Below, in pieces: positions 1 through 54,633 of a stretch of DNA of 56,103 nucleotides. The notes beneath the pieces are model-generated. The model searched no databases, was not told where the DNA came from, and saw nothing but the letters and a program-made list of their open reading frames with translations. Position numbers and translations under genes: made by a program. This stretch comes from a virus (lineage: Duplodnaviria > Caudoviricetes), in the IMG/VR virus record IMGVR_UViG_3300033076_000684, positions 1-56,103 of that record; one strand, 5' to 3'. How positions within the stretch are numbered: the first letter of the stretch is position 1; the number at the start of each line of letters is the position of its first letter.

Positions 1-1700
1 ATCTTAATTAGACCAATACGCTCTGCTTCTTCCATGTCTACCGCCACAACTGGGATACGCTCCTTGTTGCCTGGAGATGTACGTGTCTCCAATGGTGCAA
101 ACTTAAAGATAGGTTGCTTAGATGTAACAACACCTGCAGCGTGAATACCAGTACCACGAATTCGACCACGAAGAAGTTCTCCGTATGTTTCAATCTCAGG
201 GTACTTCTCACGGAACCACGCTGACTGCTTTGACGTACAATAGTCATCCCAGTCATCAACAACCTTTAGTACCTTGTTAACATCTGCCAATGGCACATTC
301 AGTGTGCGTGCAATGTCACGAACCATTCCCTTTCCACGGAACTGTAAGAATGTTGCAATAGAAGCAACATGCTTATACTGACGAACCAGATAATCCTTTA
401 CCTCTTCACGGCGTGAATCCTGAATGTCTGTATCAATATCTGGGAAGTCATTACGCTCAGGATTGATAAATCGGAAGAACAGCAATCCATGAACAATAGG
501 ATCAATATCAGTAATTCCTAGTGCATAGCAAAGCAAAGAACCTGCAGCAGAACCACGACCTGGCCCCACCATAATACCCTCCTTCTTAGCCCATGCAATC
601 ATAGAGCGTACCACAAGGAAGTATGGTCCAAAATTCTTAGCCTCAATTACTTCTAGCTCTTCATCAAGTCGTGCAAGATATTCTTCAGTTTCAATTCCAC
701 GCTCCTTGAGTCCTGCTAGAGCAAGTTCACGAAGTTCTTTATTAGGATTTTGATACTGTACTGGAAGCAAGTCTTGGTGGTCTTTAATCTTGTAGTCCTC
801 AACCTTGTCAACAATTTCACGAGTTGCCTCATACATATCTTCACGGTCGATGCCCTGTGCCTTCATAGCATTGTGCATTTCCTCATCAGATAGCAAGTGA
901 ATCTCAAACTTATTAAATGACATCTGACGATCAGCACCATATAGATAATCCAAGCGGTCCATAAGGTTGTCATACTTCTTAGAGCCTTCGTATGTTGCAC
1001 CCTTTTCAACCTTGTTTGAATATGAGTTTAGGATTAGTTTAAGTTCCTGAATCTCTTTCTGTGATGGATCAGAGTGGTGGCAGTCTGGAGTTACAACTGG
1101 CTTTACACCAAATTCATCTGCCAAATCTAGCAGTGCCTTATTTATTTCTGGTGGATTATGTGGCATTACCTCAATGTAATAGTCATCCCCAAATATTGTC
1201 TTGCACTTCTGAATGTGTTCCTTTGCATATGCAAACTCATTTGCCTCAATTGCTTTTGCAAGCACACCAGAAAGACATCCAGATGTGATAATTAGTCCAT
1301 CCTTGTATTCTTCAAGAACATCCCAGTCAATGCGTGGCTTCTTGTAGAAGCCTTCAGTCCAAGCAATTTCATTTAGCTTATTGAGATTCTGTAGACCCTT
1401 GGCATTCTTTGCAATAATAATCAAGTGATTGTAGTTAAGGTCTAGTGGGTCATTATTAGACTTCTTGTCTTCGTGGTGAAAACGATCTTTTGTAATATAT
1501 CCTTCAATACCAAGGATTGGCTTAATTCCTGCTTCTTTAGCAGCACGATACATTTCACGATGACCAGATAGAGATCCATGGTCAGTGATTGCAATTGCTG
1601 GCATTCCCAGCTCTACGGCACGGTCCACATATTCCTGTGGTGTTGCGATTCCGTCAAATAGCGAGTAGTGTGTGTGGACGTGTAGACCAGCGTAACTCAT
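1..1700 (-). CDS. dnaE: DNA polymerase III alpha subunit (5' part; runs off the left edge)
   Basis: Not in the ORF track. Translation from ATG 1700 gives MSYAGLHVHTHYSLFDG, AITDHG (PHP domain), GPGRGSAAGS, LLFFRFINPERNDFPDIDTD, GIHAAGVV and GLIK, all DnaE motifs. Confidence 0.97.
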   Translation of the reverse strand, partial: MSYAGLHVHTHYSLFDGIATPQEYVDRAVELGMPAIAITDHGSLSGHREMYRAAKEAGIKPILGIEGYITKDRFHHEDKKSNNDPLDLNYNHLIIIAKNAKGLQNLNKLNEIAWTEGFYKKPRIDWDVLEEYKDGLIITSGCLSGVLAKAIEANEFAYAKEHIQKCKTIFGDDYYIEVMPHNPPEINKALLDLADEFGVKPVVTPDCHHSDPSQKEIQELKLILNSYSNKVEKGATYEGSKKYDNLMDRLDYLYGADRQMSFNKFEIHLLSDEEMHNAMKAQGIDREDMYEATREIVDKVEDYKIKDHQDLLPVQYQNPNKELRELALAGLKERGIETEEYLARLDEELEVIEAKNFGPYFLVVRSMIAWAKKEGIMVGPGRGSAAGSLLCYALGITDIDPIVHGLLFFRFINPERNDFPDIDTDIQDSRREEVKDYLVRQYKHVASIATFLQFRGKGMVRDIARTLNVPLADVNKVLKVVDDWDDYCTSKQSAWFREKYPEIETYGELLRGRIRGTGIHAAGVVTSKQPIFKFAPLETRTSPGNKERIPVVAVDMEEAERIGLIK

Positions 1701-1803: not shown

Positions 1804-2457
1804 TTACCAATCAATGTTGGTTGATGTTACAGATGGAGTGTCAAAGCCAAAGTAGAATGCTTCTTGCTCTGGGTAAGGAACTTCACGAACTACCTTTTCA
1901 AGGTTGTGGAATTCATAATCTCCCCAAGTAAATGGCTCTGAGTCTGGACCAGTAGGAATTAGAGTGTAGTTAGTCTCGGTTCCCTGACCATTACGCTTTA
2001 GCTTCCAAACTAGGTTTGAAATGCTTCCAGTCTCAAGTGCATACTCACGAATAGTGTTGAATGCAGACTGCTTTGTGACACCCTGTGACCAGACAGCGAT
2101 GTATGGTGCCTCAAGGCCATCGTCAACTAGAACGTTGCAGTAGAAGCGAAGCTTAGAACGCCATCCTGCCTTTGGCTCCTTGCGTGCCATCTCACATGCA
2201 AAGCAGCGACCTTCAGTTTCCATAGTACAAGCAGCCATACGCTTGTAGTCCTTTGGATTGGTGTGCTGTGCAATAACTACAGAAAGACCACGGTCTTCTG
2301 AATAGTGTGCTGAATCCTGATCAAGCTCCTCAACGAAGCGAATCTTTGCAGCCTGTCCGTCAGCTAGCTTTACCCAACGAACCTTTGCTCCTGTGCTTTC
2401 ATACTTTGGCTTATCAAGGATTGCATTAATATCCTTTAGCCCTTTAATTACACCCAT
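1804..2457 (-). CDS. Single-stranded DNA-binding protein (phage gp32-like)
   Basis: Cys/His cluster (H...C...CFAC), OB-fold-like KRNGQGTETNYTL, acidic/aromatic C-terminus, located between primase and polymerase. Confidence 0.75.
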   Translation of the reverse strand: MGVIKGLKDINAILDKPKYESTGAKVRWVKLADGQAAKIRFVEELDQDSAHYSEDRGLSVVIAQHTNPKDYKRMAACTMETEGRCFACEMARKEPKAGWRSKLRFYCNVLVDDGLEAPYIAVWSQGVTKQSAFNTIREYALETGSISNLVWKLKRNGQGTETNYTLIPTGPDSEPFTWGDYEFHNLEKVVREVPYPEQEAFYFGFDTPSVTSTNIDW

Positions 2458-2486: not shown

Positions 2487-3404
2487 TTATTGTAGCATGG
2501 CCATTATTGATTTGTCAAATGACATATCTAGCCTTTTTATATCTTCGTCCTGCATGTCACCAATATCCTTGTAAGCAGAATCTAGCTTAACAGTTGTAAC
2601 CATTGGTCCAAGACTTTTAATAATCTTGTCTCTCATGTTACTTCCTGCCTCATCATTATCTGCGATAACAAAAATAGAGTTGAAATATTTACGAAGAAGC
2701 TCTATTTGTTTTGTAGAGACCATAGCCCCTAATGTTGCAACTGCTGGAATCCCAACCTGATCTAACCTAATAGCATCGAAAGACGATTCTACCACATAAA
2801 CCCTGCTAGATGTCTTTACTCTATGTAAATTAAACAGTACTTTAGACTTTGGTAATCCAGGAGTATTTTTAAAGTCTTTGCCCTCAATAGATCGTCCAAC
2901 AAAGCCAACCTCCATTCCGTCTGGTGCAGAAACTGGAATTGTTACCATATCCTGTTTTTCAGAAAAACCAAGCTGAAACTTTTTTACAGATGCTTCAGTG
3001 ATTAGCCTACCAGAATAATACCTCATTGCTCTTGGAGAATCAAGTGCTTGTTGATTAAGTCTCTTGATTAGAAGTTGGTCATACTGAGTATATTCTGGAA
3101 CAGTGATAAGCTTTTTCTCAATGTCTCCGATAATTGATGACAAGCCTTCTTTTGATTTTATATACCTAGCTGCTTCAAAATAGCTTCTTGCAGTTGTATG
3201 CATAACAACCTCAACCAAATCGGCTACGTGGTGACAAGAGAAGCAAAAAAACTTTCCAGTATTTTTATCTACTTCTCCAGCTGGAGTTCTATTGTTTGCG
3301 TGAAATGGACAAAAAACAATATAGTCAGAGTCAATCTCTTTCTCAATAGTAAGTCCTGCACCGATGAGAACCTTTTTAATTTGATCAGAAGTATAGTTAG
3401 CCAT
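2487..3404 (-). CDS. dnaG: DNA primase (CHC2 zinc finger + TOPRIM)
   Basis: CPFH...CFSC zinc finger, VGFVGRSI, VVESSFDA, IADNDEAG, KDIGD. Confidence 0.93.
   Translation of the reverse strand: MANYTSDQIKKVLIGAGLTIEKEIDSDYIVFCPFHANNRTPAGEVDKNTGKFFCFSCHHVADLVEVVMHTTARSYFEAARYIKSKEGLSSIIGDIEKKLITVPEYTQYDQLLIKRLNQQALDSPRAMRYYSGRLITEASVKKFQLGFSEKQDMVTIPVSAPDGMEVGFVGRSIEGKDFKNTPGLPKSKVLFNLHRVKTSSRVYVVESSFDAIRLDQVGIPAVATLGAMVSTKQIELLRKYFNSIFVIADNDEAGSNMRDKIIKSLGPMVTTVKLDSAYKDIGDMQDEDIKRLDMSFDKSIMAMLQ
2489..2518 (-). promoter_or_regulatory. sigma70-type promoter for the SSB gene (inside primase 3' end)
   Basis: TTGACA-18 nt-TACAAT with TG extension. Confidence 0.65.
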
Positions 3405-4624
3405 TACTTATCCTCAAAATCCTTGTACTTGTAGTATCCCTTATCAAAGTCTGCCTGAACCAAGAACTCACCCATAAAACCGTTTCTGTTCTTGCGGAAG
3501 ACACATTCAATGATATCAGAATTTGTTCCACGACCAAGAGCAAGAACCCAGTCAGCATCGTATGCAATCTGACGAGACCATGCAGTCTGACCAAGAGTTG
3601 GAACAGTATCAAGCTTTGTAACATCATCAGGTGTAGCAGATGAGATAGCAATGATTGGCACCTCTTCACTAATAGCCATAAGTTTTAGTTCACGAGAAAG
3701 GTTCTTCATTCGTACCGTCTCATTATCAGACTTTTGGTTAGGACTCATCAGCTGAAGGTAGTCAACTACAACGAAGTCTGGCTTGTATTGGTCAATCTTT
3801 CCACGCAATACTGATGGTGTAACCTCTCCACCCGAATCATTAGAGATGATGTGAAACTCTGGCTTTCCCTGAAGTGCCTTCTTGTGCCACATCTTAAGGT
3901 CATCTATCTCAATTTGACCTGCAGCAAGTTTTCTGTGTGACCATAGACCTTCTCCCATAATTGCAAATACACGGTTACGGACTTCTGTCTCACTCATTTC
4001 AAGAGATACAATCATTGGAGACTTACCTTGTTTCCATGCCTGTACAGCAAAGTATAGCGATAGCCATGACTTACCAATACCTGGATATGCAAGCATAACA
4101 CCAAGTTGGCCTGGCATAATTCCTGCTGGCAAGTAGTTGTCAAATCCTGGAAGTCCAGTCTTAATTCCAGCAGTTCCAAGCTCTGCTTGCTTCTTTACAT
4201 TTTCATAATACGCAATTGCAGAATCTAGATCTGTTGCATCAATATCACGAATTGCAGCGGTATTCTTACGCAGCTCAGATGTTTTTGAGATTAGTGCTTC
4301 AAGTGCCTCAATCCCCTTGTCTGCCTGCACATCGGCAGCAGCAGAGCGAATGATGTCCTTTAGACTGTCATTCATGTACTCTGCCTGAAGCTCTTCAAGG
4401 TGGTGCTTGGTTGCACCTACACTAGACTCTGGCTGAAAGTCACGAAACTTCTCTACAACGAGAGATACTGGTGGAACTGATGCGTTCTGCTCAAAATATA
4501 GACGGATAAAGTTCCAAATATCTTTATGGGTCTTAAGAATGTTTTCGACATTTGCCTGTAGCAAAACATGCATTTGCTTATCTTGCAGTACAGCAGAGAT
4601 TAGTTTAGATTCTGAATTACTCAC
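3404..4624 (-). CDS. dnaB: Replicative DnaB-like helicase
   Basis: Walker A AYPGIGKS, SLEMS, VVVDYLQLM, SRELKLMA, IAYDAD, KNRNG. Confidence 0.95.
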   Translation of the reverse strand: MSNSESKLISAVLQDKQMHVLLQANVENILKTHKDIWNFIRLYFEQNASVPPVSLVVEKFRDFQPESSVGATKHHLEELQAEYMNDSLKDIIRSAAADVQADKGIEALEALISKTSELRKNTAAIRDIDATDLDSAIAYYENVKKQAELGTAGIKTGLPGFDNYLPAGIMPGQLGVMLAYPGIGKSWLSLYFAVQAWKQGKSPMIVSLEMSETEVRNRVFAIMGEGLWSHRKLAAGQIEIDDLKMWHKKALQGKPEFHIISNDSGGEVTPSVLRGKIDQYKPDFVVVDYLQLMSPNQKSDNETVRMKNLSRELKLMAISEEVPIIAISSATPDDVTKLDTVPTLGQTAWSRQIAYDADWVLALGRGTNSDIIECVFRKNRNGFMGEFLVQADFDKGYYKYKDFEDK

Positions 4625-50353: not shown

Positions 50354-50467
50354 ATGAAAAACTTCTTCTCAGACAACCTATATGTAATCCTTGCTGTAGT
50401 AGGGCTAATTGCTTTGGCTGTAGTAGAGTTAGCAATTGTTATCCACGAGTCTGGTGGCTTTATCTAA
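50354..50467 (+). CDS. Small membrane protein, 37 aa
   Basis: MKNFFSDNLYVILAVVGLIALAVVELAIVIHESGGFI; SD and promoter upstream. Confidence 0.7.
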   Translation: MKNFFSDNLYVILAVVGLIALAVVELAIVIHESGGFI

Positions 50468-50746
50468 GCCCACCTTCTGGGCGTGTCTACTTGACAAAAG
50501 CTCCGATCCCTGGTCGCCCCAAAATGTGACCTAAAACACATAAGAATGTCCGATTTGTCCCTTGACTTTTTGGACTATCTATGCTAGGATACTCCTATAA
50601 ACAATTAAATAAAGGACAGATAAGGTAATGAGCCTAATCAAATAAATGTGGTGTAAATCACAGTGAGCATTAGCAAATAAGTGCCCTATTTGTCAGACCC
50701 CTATGCTAGGATTTATCCTAGAAAGTTAAAAAGAAAGGACATAAAA

Positions 50747-50956
50747 ATGTCACTAGAAATATTCCGTATAGATGAAAACGGTGCTGGTTGGGTATCATTC
50801 GATGAGGCTACTACCTCAGAAAAACTTGATTTAGAATTAGCAATCTTAACTAATGCTAAAGTAACTCTACAATGTATCAAATGCCATGTAGAAATCCCTC
50901 GTGGAAATGTATGTGTTAATCACAAAGATGTGAAAGGTGCCGTTTATTTCGGCTAA
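50747..50956 (+). CDS. Early protein with C-terminal zinc-ribbon
   Basis: CIKC...CVNH; AAAGGA SD before ATG 50747. Confidence 0.75.
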   Translation: MSLEIFRIDENGAGWVSFDEATTSEKLDLELAILTNAKVTLQCIKCHVEIPRGNVCVNHKDVKGAVYFG

Positions 50957-50969
50957 AGAAAGGATAACT

Positions 50970-51146
50970 ATGTATAAAATAAGACTAGAAAGCTTTAATG
51001 GAAATGTTTCTACTGTATCTCTTCCTAGTGAAGAAAGTGTAAAACAATTCTTAGAACAATACCCTGCAAAACTTCCTAAAGGTGTTGCACTGCGTGTATC
51101 ATGTGATGCACTCTCTATTGTTGGTACCCTAGTAGGTACCGCATAG
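50970..51146 (+). CDS. Early hypothetical protein
   Basis: AAAGGA SD before ATG 50970. Confidence 0.7.
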   Translation: MYKIRLESFNGNVSTVSLPSEESVKQFLEQYPAKLPKGVALRVSCDALSIVGTLVGTA

Positions 51147-51288
51147 AGGTGCTTGACAAATGATCTAAAATGTGGTCGCCCCCCGTTATCAAATCGTTAT
51201 AATTAAATACACGACACGCCGATAAAAAGGCTTGACAATGTCTTACCCCTATGCTACTGTATAGGTATAGAAAGAAAAGGAACAGAAA

Positions 51289-51480
51289 ATGCTAAAAGGA
51301 CTTGCTTTTAACCCATACATCAACCACAACTCAACCCTAGAGGAAATCGAAACAGAGTTGTCTAGTCTGCTTGAGTATGCTGACAAGGTTCTAGATTGGG
51401 ATATCACAGACTATGAAGAAAAGCAACTAATGGCTTTGACCAAGTTGGCTAAGGCAAAAGGCTCAACCCGTAAGTGGTAA
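51289..51480 (+). CDS. Early hypothetical protein
   Basis: Promoter and AAAGGA SD. Confidence 0.7.
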   Translation: MLKGLAFNPYINHNSTLEEIETELSSLLEYADKVLDWDITDYEEKQLMALTKLAKAKGSTRKW

Positions 51481-51527
51481 ATGTCTGACCCTAATGCTAA
51501 ACTAAATACATAAAGAAAGGAAAACTA

Positions 51528-51761
51528 ATGAACAAGTTTCAGAATGTAGACAAAGACCTTCGTGTCTGTGTTTATTGCTACGGCACTACCTATGCGTATG
51601 TTTGCCCAAGTTGTAATGAGTATGACGGGCTAATGCCTGTAAACCAAGAAACCGAAGACTATCTAGGTGAAGACCTGCTAGAAATCGTTTCAGAAGAATG
51701 TGGCCGTTGTGGTCAGTTTGTTATCCCTAGTTCTCACCCTCAGATTGGATGTGACGCATAA
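51528..51761 (+). CDS. Early zinc-finger protein
   Basis: CVYC...CPSCNEYDGLM...CGRC...H...C. Confidence 0.75.
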   Translation: MNKFQNVDKDLRVCVYCYGTTYAYVCPSCNEYDGLMPVNQETEDYLGEDLLEIVSEECGRCGQFVIPSSHPQIGCDA

Positions 51762-51892
51762 TGATGTTCTATAACGGATTCAACCTATTGCTTGACATTG
51801 TATTTTGCTACATTGCGTTTCGTATTGGTAAGTCATTCGGATACTCAGAAGGGTATCGTGATGGCGAAGAGGATAACGCTCCACCATTCTAA
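51761..51892 (+). CDS. Membrane micro-protein ending EEDNAPPF, 43 aa
   Basis: Not in the ORF track; TAATG-coupled: MMFYNGFNLLLDIVFCYIAFRIGKSFGYSEGYRDGEEDNAPPF. Confidence 0.7.
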   Translation: MMFYNGFNLLLDIVFCYIAFRIGKSFGYSEGYRDGEEDNAPPF

Positions 51893-52179
51893 AAATACCC
51901 TGGCGTGTCAGCTTGACAAACTGATCCGCTTGTGGTCGCCCCCACGCTGTCGGGCGTGTCGTTATAAGAATGTTATAAAAAATGTCCGAATTGTACGGCG
52001 TGTCGTCTTGACTTTTTGGATTTTGTGTGCTAGTATTCTACTATAACAATTAAATAAGTAAAGATAATCCGTTATCAAAATGTTATCTAAATCACACGAT
52101 TTGGACTTGACTTTTAGAGAAATGTGTGCTAGATTTATCTTATTGAAATAAAGAAAGTCTCTTGAAAGGAGAACTAAAA

Positions 52180-52476
52180 ATGAAAAAGTTTCGTTCTATT
52201 GAAATCGGTTCTGATGTTGCGTTTTATTCTAACGCAGGTCGTAAGAAAATCGAAGGTTCAGAAAAGCCTAATGGTCAATTTCTAGCCCGTAAAATGTTCT
52301 ACACTAAGCCAATTGCTAATGGCGTAGTTGTAAAAATCAAGGGGCACAATGCCCACGCTTGCCAAATCACTTTTGATAATGGTAAGACTTTTGAAATGGG
52401 TTTAGATACTCACTACCACCTAAATGGTGAAATTGGTGATTGTGTTGCTCACCAAGACAATTACTCAATGTTGTAA
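52180..52476 (+). CDS. Early hypothetical protein
   Basis: GAAAGGAG SD before ATG 52180. Confidence 0.7.
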   Translation: MKKFRSIEIGSDVAFYSNAGRKKIEGSEKPNGQFLARKMFYTKPIANGVVVKIKGHNAHACQITFDNGKTFEMGLDTHYHLNGEIGDCVAHQDNYSML

Positions 52477-52526
52477 AATGTCAGACCTATAGACTATAAT
52501 AAGACTAATAAAGAAAGGACAACTAA

Positions 52527-52748
52527 ATGTCAAAAATTCAAGGTTACTCTGTAGAAGAAATCCTAATCGGAACTTACTACCGCTCTTCTGTTCGTCCCCG
52601 TTTCAATGATGGTTTGATTGTTGAAGCCGTCAAGCGTGATGATGTTTGGCTAAATGGTGCTGAGGCGTATGCTGTTCGTGTTCGTCCAACCTACAATGGT
52701 CAAATGTTGTTTGAAGACTTTTGGGCAACGATTGCGGTGAACAACTAA
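52527..52748 (+). CDS. Early hypothetical protein
   Basis: Promoter and AAAGGA SD. Confidence 0.7.
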   Translation: MSKIQGYSVEEILIGTYYRSSVRPRFNDGLIVEAVKRDDVWLNGAEAYAVRVRPTYNGQMLFEDFWATIAVNN

Positions 52749-52846
52749 TGACTATGACCTGTAAAGAATGTAATCGCAAGTTTGACCTGTGGAATGAAGA
52801 AGAAGCAGGGGAATGGTATTTTGGACACGATTGTGAGGCTAACTAA
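52748..52846 (+). CDS. Small zinc-binding protein, 32 aa
   Basis: MTMTCKECNRKFDLWNEEEAGEWYFGHDCEAN; TAATG coupling on both sides. Confidence 0.75.
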   Translation: MTMTCKECNRKFDLWNEEEAGEWYFGHDCEAN

Positions 52847-52953
52847 TGGAAATCTTTTTGTGTGATGAATGCGATACCCTCGCAACAGTAGAACTAAAAG
52901 GCAACACGCTAACAGTTGTTGCTTGCAAATGTCAGACCAATACACTAAACTAA
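52846..52953 (+). CDS. Small zinc-binding protein, 35 aa
   Basis: MEIFLCDECDTLATVELKGNTLTVVACKCQTNTLN. Confidence 0.65.
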   Translation: MEIFLCDECDTLATVELKGNTLTVVACKCQTNTLN

Positions 52954-52990
52954 TAACATAAACAAAAACAAGAAAAGGATAGAAAATAAA

Positions 52991-53179
52991 ATGATGACCC
53001 GTAAAGACTATGTTCAGACCGCTAACATTCTAAACCAGTTTGTTGATGAGATTGACTTTCTAGTTCTTCAAGAAATCGCAGATGGTTTCGCAGAAATGTT
53101 TGAAAACGATAACCCTAATTTCAACTATCAGAAGTTTATTGACGCAGTATTCGCAGAACTAACGGAGGGGGAAGAGTAA
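52991..53179 (+). CDS. Early hypothetical protein (MTRKDY...NPNF...KFIDA family)
   Basis: Recurrent small phage family pattern; SD AAAGGA. Confidence 0.75.
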   Translation: MMTRKDYVQTANILNQFVDEIDFLVLQEIADGFAEMFENDNPNFNYQKFIDAVFAELTEGEE

Positions 53180-53280
53180 TGGAATTTTTTATCATCCTAC
53201 TCATGTTCTCTAATGTTTGGGCCTTCACCAAGATATCGAAGCTGCAGAATGAAATTAGAGACTTAAAACCACCGTTCTAA
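53179..53280 (+). CDS. Membrane micro-protein ending PPF, 33 aa
   Basis: MEFFIILLMFSNVWAFTKISKLQNEIRDLKPPF; TAATG-coupled, GGAGGGGG upstream. Confidence 0.7.
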   Translation: MEFFIILLMFSNVWAFTKISKLQNEIRDLKPPF

Positions 53281-53307
53281 AATGGATCCCCTGGGATGGC
53301 TCTGTAC

Positions 53308-53328
53308 TTATCCACAGAGTTATCCACA
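53308..53328 (+). promoter_or_regulatory. Tandem perfect DnaA boxes
   Basis: TTATCCACA-gag-TTATCCACA. Confidence 0.75.
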
Positions 53329-53420
53329 GGGCCCGACCCGTTTATAACATTTTGGTAACATTTAAGAAAAACTAATTAAGTAGACTTGACAATGTCCCCC
53401 GTTCATGCTAGTCTTATGGT

Positions 53421-53597
53421 ATGAAGAAAGATAAGCCTAAGTTTAAGCCAACGGCTAACCCTGCCTATGCTGAGGGTATGCGTGAGATTCGTAAGTCTAA
53501 CGCTAGTGGCACTCACCTAGATAGAAGGACACGCCGTCAAAGGACTAGACAAAGTAGTATCTACCGTGCTATTATTGAACAAACGAAAGAAGGATAA
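53421..53597 (+). CDS. Small basic protein, 58 aa (leaderless)
   Basis: MKKDKPKFKPTANPAYAEGMREIRKSNASGTHLDRRTRRQRTRQSSIYRAIIEQTKEG; ATG 6 nt after the -10 TAGTCT. Confidence 0.7.
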   Translation: MKKDKPKFKPTANPAYAEGMREIRKSNASGTHLDRRTRRQRTRQSSIYRAIIEQTKEG

Positions 53598-53598
53598 C

Positions 53599-53886
53599 AT
53601 GGGCAGCAACATGGCAATGGAATTGGCAGACAAAGACCTATTCCCTAACATTACACTAGAAGACGCTATTGGTATGCACTTGCGTGGAAACCACTATCCA
53701 CCTGTACCCCTAAGCATGGTGCCTGTATGTATTGACGCTATTAACGCTTACAATGAAGACGAAGGCTCAAAGATGATTCCCCTGCCTGAAGGCGTATCGT
53801 GGCGTGGACAACTTGAGGCACCTGCCTATGCAATTATTGAGGCTCACCACCTAGACGCATGGCTTGACATAGACGAAGATTACTGA
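53599..53886 (+). CDS. Early hypothetical protein (HL.GNHYPPVP family)
   Basis: AAGGA SD before ATG 53599. Confidence 0.75.
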   Translation: MGSNMAMELADKDLFPNITLEDAIGMHLRGNHYPPVPLSMVPVCIDAINAYNEDEGSKMIPLPEGVSWRGQLEAPAYAIIEAHHLDAWLDIDEDY

Positions 53887-53916
53887 TAAAATAGTTTAAA
53901 GAAAGAAAGGACTACT

Positions 53917-54633
53917 ATGCTAATTCGTAGCAAAGATAGGAAAGTTACTAATGCAGTCTCACCAAACGGAAAAACCCCAACAATCGCAAACACTTTTGGA
54001 TTACCTAGTGGCAAGGCTTACTCGTGCCCTGGTGCAACCGTTGTATGTGAGAGCGTCTGTTATGCAGGAAAGCTTGAAAAAGTCTACAAGGGAGTAAAAA
54101 ACGTACTACTCTCAAATTGGGAGCAATTGAAAGACACTGATTATCTTACCATGTATAACTTATTGGATGAGATGATCGTTTCATTCAAGAAAGACTGTGA
54201 TAAGCGTAATGCAGAAAAACTATTCCGCTTGCACTGGGATGGTGATTTCTTTAATGAGACTTATGTGCTTGCATGGAAGGATGTAATTCTTAAGCATGCA
54301 GATACACAATTTTGGGCCTATACCCGTTCAGAATTCGCTGTTGAACCGTTAACTGGCATTGCTAACCTATCACTTTATTTTAGTACTGATAGTGCTAACC
54401 GTTCATTGGGTATTTCACTCAAGAAGAAACACGATGTAAAGCTTGCATACCTTGCTAAGACTTTTGCAGAAGGTAAGGCAGACTTTGCTAACATTCAAGA
54501 TAAGGCTGCAGTGCCATGCCCTGAAAACGCTAAGAAAATTAAACTTATTAGTGAGACTGGCAGTGCATGTGTAACCTGTTCACAATGTGTGTTTAATCGC
54601 AATGACATTCTGTTCAGTGCCACCAAAAAATAA
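53917..54633 (+). CDS. Gp88-like protein (mycobacteriophage gene 88 family; radical-SAM-like Cys motif)
   Basis: FGLPSGKAYSCPGATVVCESVCYA, FRLHWDGDFF, FWAYTR, C-terminal CP...CVTCSQC; promoter TTGACA-17-TAAAAT at 53865. Confidence 0.75.
   Translation: MLIRSKDRKVTNAVSPNGKTPTIANTFGLPSGKAYSCPGATVVCESVCYAGKLEKVYKGVKNVLLSNWEQLKDTDYLTMYNLLDEMIVSFKKDCDKRNAEKLFRLHWDGDFFNETYVLAWKDVILKHADTQFWAYTRSEFAVEPLTGIANLSLYFSTDSANRSLGISLKKKHDVKLAYLAKTFAEGKADFANIQDKAAVPCPENAKKIKLISETGSACVTCSQCVFNRNDILFSATKK

Follow-up and report, generated by a model that had tools for sequence, protein, structure and literature searches.

Phage-encoded membrane micro-proteins ending in Pro-Pro-Phe: putative tethered mimics of the host SSB tip

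The 56,103-bp virus record IMGVR_UViG_3300033076_000684 of IMG/VR (Duplodnaviria; Caudoviricetes), analysed here over its whole length and called the window below, contains two open reading frames (ORFs), ORF1 and ORF2, encoding predicted membrane micro-proteins that end in Pro-Pro-Phe (PPF) and may best be explained as tethered mimics of the C-terminal tip of the host's SSB, the protein that binds single-stranded DNA. Through that tip, as a shared handle, many bacterial enzymes of genome maintenance are recruited. An earlier note on this DNA had proposed that the two peptides imitate it at the membrane, a reading to which, in modified form, we now give a probability of about 0.45. At the level of sequence, the comparisons described below establish that both are real genes, whose tip is selected as protein, recurs on at least four unrelated scaffolds, co-varies within a genome and is identical to the one on SSBs from the candidate host class. 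What is new here is the carrier and the location of a docking motif that is itself known.

Both ORFs lie where the earlier note had placed them, with the sequences it had given (Table 1). ORF1, whose C-terminal stretch reads ...GYRDGEEDNAPPF, belongs to a family (family A) for which a profile search of 5.8 billion proteins yielded 472 relatives at E ≤ 0.001. Among the best 120 of these, 102 end in Pro-Phe (86 PPF, 8 TPF, 4 IPF, 3 APF and 1 VPF) and 8 more carry PPF followed by Gln or Trp and extra residues; together with the three relatives of ORF2, all ending KPPF, they bear out the expected conservation of the terminal Pro-Phe among homologues. Ten public gene calls (P0031, P0038, P0055, P0058, P0071, P0086, P0096, P0104, P0124 and P0232) run past PPF through a Gln or Trp, as if the gene caller had applied another genetic code and translated the stop codon.

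Related loci were collected with a neighbouring GP88-family gene (53917..54633) as anchor, relatives of which are encoded in 595 of 599 IMG/VR candidate stretches; the best 80 of the 595 (97–63% identity) made up the related-locus set, in which an ORF1 homologue was clear in 20 loci and an ORF2 homologue was found in 3. In an alignment of 17 family A sequences, F3, Y4, N5, G6, F7, N8, L9 and D12 are invariant together with P42 and F43, and the linker between helix and tip is variable. By calculation, N5, N8 and D12 share a single helical face, which suggests helix–helix contacts in the membrane. The family of ORF2 (family B) is rare: among 1.84 billion representatives it comprises two 33-residue clusters, both KPPF-ended, one identical to the copy in locus L007 and the other one residue off the copy in locus L012, and a wider search of related loci, which led back to two contigs already known, and of representatives gave no additional relative.

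Database comparisons placed neither micro-protein in a characterized family. No Pfam match was obtained for ORF1 or ORF2, the SSB family (OB fold, PF00436) included, and the two proteins are not SSBs. In PHROGs, ORF2 has no match and ORF1 matches only phrog_26748, over 19 residues with E 0.0072; ESM Atlas returned only unnamed clusters with scores below 0.9. A 43-residue protein 95% identical to ORF1 is present in a public protein collection.

The tip is not confined to these two families. Among the 1571 frames of the window (stop-to-stop, at least 20 residues, six frames), ORF1 and ORF2 are the only two that end in PPF. The related loci encode two further kinds of single-helix micro-protein with the same ending, family C (44–47 residues, tail ...EELEKN[ESQ]PPF) and family D (tail ...LNRPPF, three loci), and no sequence similarity was detected between families A, B, C and D. 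Family C has 344 relatives at E ≤ 0.001, the best 120 of which comprise 114 ending in PPF, 4 in TPF and 2 in PPF with read-through; a tblastn search with ORF1 and family C gave no match in 50,697 GenBank phage records. Across the 80 related loci, PPF terminates 22 of 6765 coding-strand ORFs, as the fourth commonest C-terminal tripeptide on that strand, versus 1 of 7037 ORFs on the other strand; in 80 further loci, the counts are 49 of 3478 and 0 of 3647, respectively. When distinct, free-standing, hydrophobic small ORFs of the coding strand are considered, Pro-Phe is by far the commonest ending (14 of 95). The consensus tip across families is N-x-P-P-F-COOH, and its presentation on a predicted membrane helix is a real, new motif class with hundreds of members. 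A soluble, acidic, Cys-containing family of 49–58 residues in related phages is also P-F-ended (...EELFAVPF, ...FFQLTTPF).

Selection acts on the protein, because the Pro codons of the tip vary synonymously: the 34 distinct gene ends of family A use all four Pro codons at both Pro positions, with both TAA and TAG as stops. A DNA-level motif was rejected on this ground, and it is highly unlikely that the PPF-stop has no protein-level function and is a DNA module, that is, a 3' cassette boundary by a promoter, spread by recombination or arisen by chance. Such a module would accord with the occurrence of TTGAC[AT] within 60 nt after the stop of 21 of 35 distinct PF-tailed family A genes versus 3 of 34 tipless ones, and with the octamer GGCGTGTC or its complement, which in relatives often begins immediately behind the stop of a PF-tailed gene. 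The TTGAC[AT] enrichment confirms the placement at cassette ends and leaves a small possibility of modular spread. However, a DNA module is at odds with free codon variation under fixed residues, with the different tip codons and opposite orientation of the downstream boxes in families A and C, with retention of the tip as the terminus of tails whose length ranges from 34 to 73 residues (in one family A subgroup, PPF closes a 73-residue protein), and with the rarity of PPF among the frames of the window.

Further information comes from phages that carry two such genes. Twelve distinct loci encode a pair of PF-tailed micro-proteins from different families, and in all 12 the two proteins have the same residue at position −3 (counting the final Phe as −1), with 10 P/P pairs, one T/T pair and one A/A pair. 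The informative loci are two contigs that are close relatives, with the T pair encoded by ACA/ACC and the A pair by GCA/GCC; both genes thus share the first-base change and each keeps its own third base, a pattern that disfavours gene conversion and favours a reader shared by both tails. The agreement at −3 within genomes, carried by these two contigs, points to one reader common to both micro-proteins. No second PF-tailed ORF was found on five further contigs with T, A or I at −3, and in IMG/VR pattern scans, family C tails having Thr or Ala at −3 were confined to the two contigs already known.

As had been claimed, each ORF is modelled as a hydrophobic helix with a short free PPF tail. AlphaFold2, run with the family alignments, predicts for ORF1 a helix at residues 3–28, a short helix at 32–37 and coil for the last 6 residues (predicted local distance difference test score, pLDDT, 73.7), and for ORF2 a helix at residues 2–29 and coil for the last 4 residues (pLDDT 83.1). 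In the four scaffolds, Lys or Arg is absent ahead of the helix and present directly behind it. As the flank of a membrane helix that bears Lys and Arg is cytoplasmic according to the positive-inside rule, we infer that the tail faces the cytoplasm, with the N-terminus outside. In ORF2 the hydrophobic stretch, only about 16 residues long, may anchor the protein without spanning the membrane completely. This short stretch, and the fact that periplasmic PDZ proteases of other bacteria read C-terminal aromatics, could be accommodated by the reverse topology (N-terminus in, C-terminus out), with the Phe read outside by, for example, a PDZ-type protease or a cell-envelope enzyme; the charge pattern of all four scaffolds, which puts the tail inside, and the absence of a signal-peptide-like N-terminus make that arrangement very improbable.

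The identity of the tip with that of an SSB depends on the host. The earlier note cited the mycobacterial SSB tip, DDEPPF. The phage, an uncultured one represented by a fragment of 39% G+C, is not a mycobacteriophage, and its likely host is not a mycobacterium. WhiB lies above the Pfam cut-off in 5 of 5 complete relatives (105–117 kb). According to the available parts of two reports, whiB is restricted to Actinobacteriota and serves as an actinophage marker (PMC10202952; PMC10914622), which suggests an actinobacterial host. The metagenome-assembled genomes (MAGs) in which relatives of the anchor gene are binned include two from Actinomycetota (1.3 and 1.7 Mb), whose SSBs, encoded in the rpsF-ssb-rpsR-rplI setting, end NDEPPF and TDEPPF. 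Sampling of 25 published loci across the class of the MAG, Actinomycetes (excluding four loci that came from unpublished genomes), gave a full SSB in 24, all ending in PPF (21 DEPPF, 1 EEPPF, 1 SEPPF and 1 EDPPF), so that the expectation of a PPF-ended SSB in the likely host phylum was upheld in this sample. In the candidate host order, one DEPPF-stop was found in 70 of 151 genomes (1.1–2.2 Mb) and was confirmed as SSB in two; three non-PPF matches to DE-x-PF in the order were dismissed as chance matches. The Pro at −3 of the micro-proteins matches 24 of 24 SSBs of the candidate class and the 70 DEPPF-stops of the candidate order. In one 1.5-Mb genome of the candidate order, G047, PPF ends only the SSB and one 253-residue protein. 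The latter (L248 1501..2262, minus strand) ends ...HIPWPPF and has no Pfam match.

Elsewhere in the phylum, tips of the form [DE][DE]-x-P-F-stop with x other than Pro occur in 45 of 121 genomes; across the 57 rows, x is I in 37, V in 13, A in 4, M in 2 and T in 1. Five of seven such matches examined are SSBs (two DEAPF, and EEAPF, EEVPF and DDDIPF), and the T match and one A match were set aside as chance matches. The existence of SSB tips with A, I or V in the phylum indicates that the minority −3 residues A, I and V of the micro-proteins are natural SSB variants.

The likeness to the SSB tip thus consists in a Pro-Phe with free carboxylate at the extreme C-terminus after a flexible stretch, in the Pro at −3 found in every Actinomycetes SSB sampled, and in tails that are in some cases acidic, as in EEDNAPPF of ORF1, with EED immediately before N-A-P-P-F. 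Glu occupies −4 in 58 of 118 family C tails, the commonest of which, ELEKNEPPF (37 of 118), is separated from DEPPF only by N for D. There are also differences: the micro-proteins lack an OB fold, and the carrier is a membrane helix of 33–47 residues instead of a DNA-binding tetramer.

Several observations weigh against an SSB mimic. Positions −4 and −5 are acidic in 23 of the 24 sampled SSBs. In the micro-proteins, by contrast, −5 is Asn (family A, 73 of 102; family C, 109 of 118) and −4 is often Lys (46 of 102 PF tails of family A). In ORF1, these positions are N39 and A40, with E36, E37 and D38 further back, and in ORF2 L29 and K30; the ORF2 tail IRDLKPPF is net basic, as are the six residues before Pro-Phe in 59 of 102 family A proteins. 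The best 120 family A proteins are moreover a sample biased to the profile. In a fairer scan seeded on the N-terminal motif alone (93 of 206 stretches confirmed, 80 kept, giving 66 distinct family A proteins), Pro-Phe ends 33 of 66 and other tails, which are either longer and acidic-aromatic or very short, end the remaining 33, suggesting that the helix also works without the tip. Neither of the complete relatives G004 and G005 has a PPF-type micro-ORF. As regards the host, whiB is absent from the window fragment itself, and the MAG bins with relatives of the anchor gene mix several phyla. As regards the tuning of −3, none of the 151 candidate-order genomes yielded a DE[TA]PF tip, Thr at −3 could be confirmed for no SSB in the genomes scanned (the sole TPF match being the chance match mentioned above), and the verified APF tips of SSBs come from genomes of 61–64% G+C, as against 39–40% for the phages. 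The SSB-tail proposal of the earlier note is hence sustained in part: the conserved Pro-Phe, the cytoplasmic tail predicted from charge and the PPF of the SSBs sampled from the likely host phylum stand, but the acidic part of the motif is not conserved.

Because the tip is present or absent on the same helix and always terminal when present, it is a module. Among the long-tailed family A proteins without Pro-Phe (within loci L125–L193), the helix is followed by a repeated G-[YFW]-x-x-G-[YF] and an acidic-aromatic tail.

The departures from the SSB sequence are what an alternative would explain, in which the tip docks to one dedicated partner outside the SSB interactome, host-encoded and membrane-proximal or phage-encoded, and the resemblance to SSB is coincidental. 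Asn at −5, where SSB has Asp or Glu, is the best-conserved residue after Pro-Phe in families A and C, family A tails commonly have Lys at −4, a single co-evolving reader is the simplest account of the strict agreement at −3 within genomes, and the T at −3 has no confirmed SSB counterpart. We nevertheless consider a dedicated partner less likely than the mimic, though a serious alternative, since the last three residues with their free carboxylate are the SSB tip typical of the phylum, PPF-COOH is rare in the host-like proteome, the minority residues A, I and V at −3 occur in other SSB tips of the phylum, and no candidate partner has been identified.

If, with the inferred host and topology, the tip is a membrane-tethered SSB mimic, ORF1 and ORF2 would act as early, cassette-terminal micro-proteins in the cytoplasmic membrane of the host, each inserted through its single N-terminal helix with the N-terminus out and the C-terminus in. 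The short flexible tail would display x-P-P-F-COOH, a copy of the host SSB tip D-E-P-P-F-COOH, to the cytoplasm, where it may dock in the pockets by which host proteins read the SSB tip. Candidate readers are genome-maintenance enzymes (PriA, RecG, Ung and RecA) and, in this phylum, ClpX; they would thereby be competed off SSB or moved to the membrane. The replisome of the phage would be unaffected, as its own SSB ends in NIDW. A broader proposal, which we advance tentatively and at less than even odds, is that freshwater actinophages display copies of the SSB tip on at least four unrelated single-pass scaffolds as decoys, tuned to the tip residue of the host, that would draw the SSB-dependent machinery of replication restart, repair or ClpX off the host DNA while the phage relies on its own replisome.

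C-terminal residues also commonly determine protease recognition, and the micro-proteins are early genes of a lytic-type cassette, for which a tip that tags them toward a cytoplasmic protease, or protects them from it, could time their action. In mycobacteria, as far as the available part of one report goes, ClpX is activated by a 10-residue peptide from the SSB tail, provided that its final Phe is present (PMC7847540). That engagement of ClpX through Phe would fit a turnover or stability signal, yet in the same source SSB activated ClpXP1P2 and was not degraded by it, and a degron would leave both the match to the host-class SSB and the Asn at −5 shared across scaffolds unexplained, so that we regard a turnover signal as improbable. 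For the membrane-tethered mimic, the same finding makes ClpX a candidate reader beside PriA, RecG, Ung and RecA, as ClpX is a reader of a PPF-ended tip in the same phylum and a tethered tip could act alike; the activation described in PMC7847540, as excerpted, concerns SSB itself and involves no phage protein or membrane tether. RecO, named as a target in the earlier note, was dropped, because the RecO protein of M. smegmatis shows no binding to the tip of SSB (GADDEPPF in this species) according to the accessible portion of PMC3575820. This non-binding tells against the mimic for that reader and implies that the set of SSB-tip readers in the phylum is poorly known.

The putative mimicry is worth comparing with other systems in which phages use C-terminal tips or small membrane proteins. 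The T7 proteins gp2.5 and gp4 have acidic C-terminal tails ending in Phe that serve as docking elements of the replisome, and thus share with the micro-proteins a terminal aromatic residue with free carboxylate; they are, however, soluble, bind the phage's own polymerase, have no membrane anchor and do not copy a host tip. The phi29 proteins p1 and p16.7 are membrane proteins that organise replication at the membrane. Like ORF1 and ORF2 they are small and early and have an N-terminal membrane helix, with a cytoplasmic part acting on DNA replication, whereas their sequences are unrelated and their binding to DNA or terminal protein relies on folded or coiled-coil domains instead of a C-terminal tripeptide. 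The host SSB tip itself is used by phage recombinases: as described in the available parts of the two reports, the C-terminal domain of Red-beta docks on it (PMC6393309), and RecET systems have been mined by means of the SSB tip (PMC13490951). These show that phages have evolved around the host-specific tip, with the difference that Red-beta and RecET read it and the micro-proteins would imitate it; in the excerpted literature on phage mimics of the SSB tail, such tip-binding proteins were found and no imitator. A mimic of the FtsZ C-terminal peptide, which binds anchors of the SepF type, was excluded for the candidate order, where FtsZ ends ...D[IV]DVPDFMK (three genomes) with a non-terminal P-D-F core.

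Among cultured phages, PPF-stop is absent in Streptomyces phage Jay2Jay and in D29, TM4, Bxb1 and phiC31. Gene 67 of Mycobacterium phage L5 (42213..42344) encodes a 43-residue hypothetical protein ending ...VIELYGPPF with an acidic, non-hydrophobic body, possibly a soluble PPF-tipped micro-protein in a cultured actinophage.

According to partly available sources, the SSB tip is under exploration as an antibacterial target. If the mimic is genuine, a membrane peptide that hijacks the SSB handle would be a new strategy of host takeover, a case in which a phage imitates a short linear motif of a bacterial interaction hub, and it would provide a ready-made probe for SSB-tip readers in Actinomycetota, which include abundant freshwater lineages that are hard to culture. 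Should the SSB reading fail, the N-x-P-P-F-COOH motif and its co-variation still make a search for the reader feasible.

The window, with an estimated completeness of 52% and about 39% G+C, has no nucleotide match among the 50,697 GenBank phage records, and its portal protein is 45% identical to the portal of large Streptomyces phages such as LukeCage. The stretch was found in freshwater, riverine and aquatic metagenome runs, and no RNA run was listed among the public runs containing it. The phage encodes a polymerase, primase, helicase and SSB of its own, and the SSB does end in NIDW as described (Table 1). From about 49 kb onward, the plus strand is a series of short early-type cassettes. 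ORF1 and ORF2 are each the last gene of a cassette, as had been recognized, and each is followed by an intergenic stretch with a promoter-like TTGACA.

Table 1. Positions of ORF1, ORF2 and associated features (window coordinates unless a locus is given)
Feature	Coordinates	Strand	Description
Upstream Cys-rich gene	51528..51761	+	77 residues; stop overlaps ORF1 start (TAATG); weak zinc-ribbon match below Pfam cut-off
ORF1 (family A)	51761..51892	+	43 residues, MMFYNGFNLLLDIVFCYIAFRIGKSFGYSEGYRDGEEDNAPPF; N-terminal M-[IM]-F-Y-N-G-F-N-L-L-x-D, one helix, tail ...EEDNAPPF
ORF1 residues 3–28	51767..51844	+	Hydrophobic helix, predicted membrane anchor; AlphaFold2 helix 3–28; N5, N8 and D12 on one face
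ORF1 end, P41-P42-F43 and TAA stop	51881..51892	+	P42 and F43 invariant in family A alignment; relatives use all four Pro codons
Intergenic promoter region after ORF1	51902..52036	+	GGCGTGTC three times (51902, 51953, 51997); TTGACA 51913..51918; promoter-like site 52008..52036
Upstream 62-residue gene	52991..53179	+	Stop overlaps ORF2 start (TAATG); GGAGG 7 nt before ORF2 ATG
ORF2 (family B)	53179..53280	+	33 residues, MEFFIILLMFSNVWAFTKISKLQNEIRDLKPPF; helix 2–29, tail ...IRDLKPPF
ORF2 end, P31-P32-F33 and TAA stop	53269..53280	+	K30, P31, P32 and F33 invariant in 3/3 aligned sequences
Intergenic region after ORF2	53281..53420	+	TTGACA 53386..53391; next gene from 53421
Pol III alpha-type polymerase	3..1700	-	Window-encoded
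Phage SSB	1804..2457	-	217 residues, C-terminus NIDW; phrog_9721 'single strand DNA binding protein', E 2e-40
Primase	2487..3404	-	Window-encoded
DnaB-type helicase	3404..4624	-	Window-encoded
Soluble P-F family members	L030 5735..5884; L031 4763..4912; L032 4554..4703; L038 5567..5743		

A third hydrophobic micro-ORF (37 residues, ...VIHESGGFI; 50354..50467, plus strand) also stands at a cassette end, without the PF tip. A 551-residue protein encoded at 37620..39275 on the minus strand contains an Mtd_N domain (the N-terminal domain of the major tropism determinant; E 1.5e-14), which hints at a diversity-generating receptor-binding protein; no search for a reverse transcriptase was made.

The octamer GGCGTGTC occurs 7 times in the window versus 0.35 expected, at 50480, 51213, 51902, 51953, 51997, 53528 and 56010, all within the early region (50480..56017), and the three copies after ORF1 lie directly upstream of TTGAC hexamers; the octamer resembles an operator or UP-type element associated with a promoter. 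Finally, two tandem perfect copies of TTATCCACA, which we take to be the DnaA-box consensus, are located at 53308..53316 and 53320..53328, 28 nt past ORF2. This sequence has 3 copies in the window versus 0.7 expected and also follows the stop of a family A gene in locus L139; it may serve for DnaA binding or as an element of an origin.

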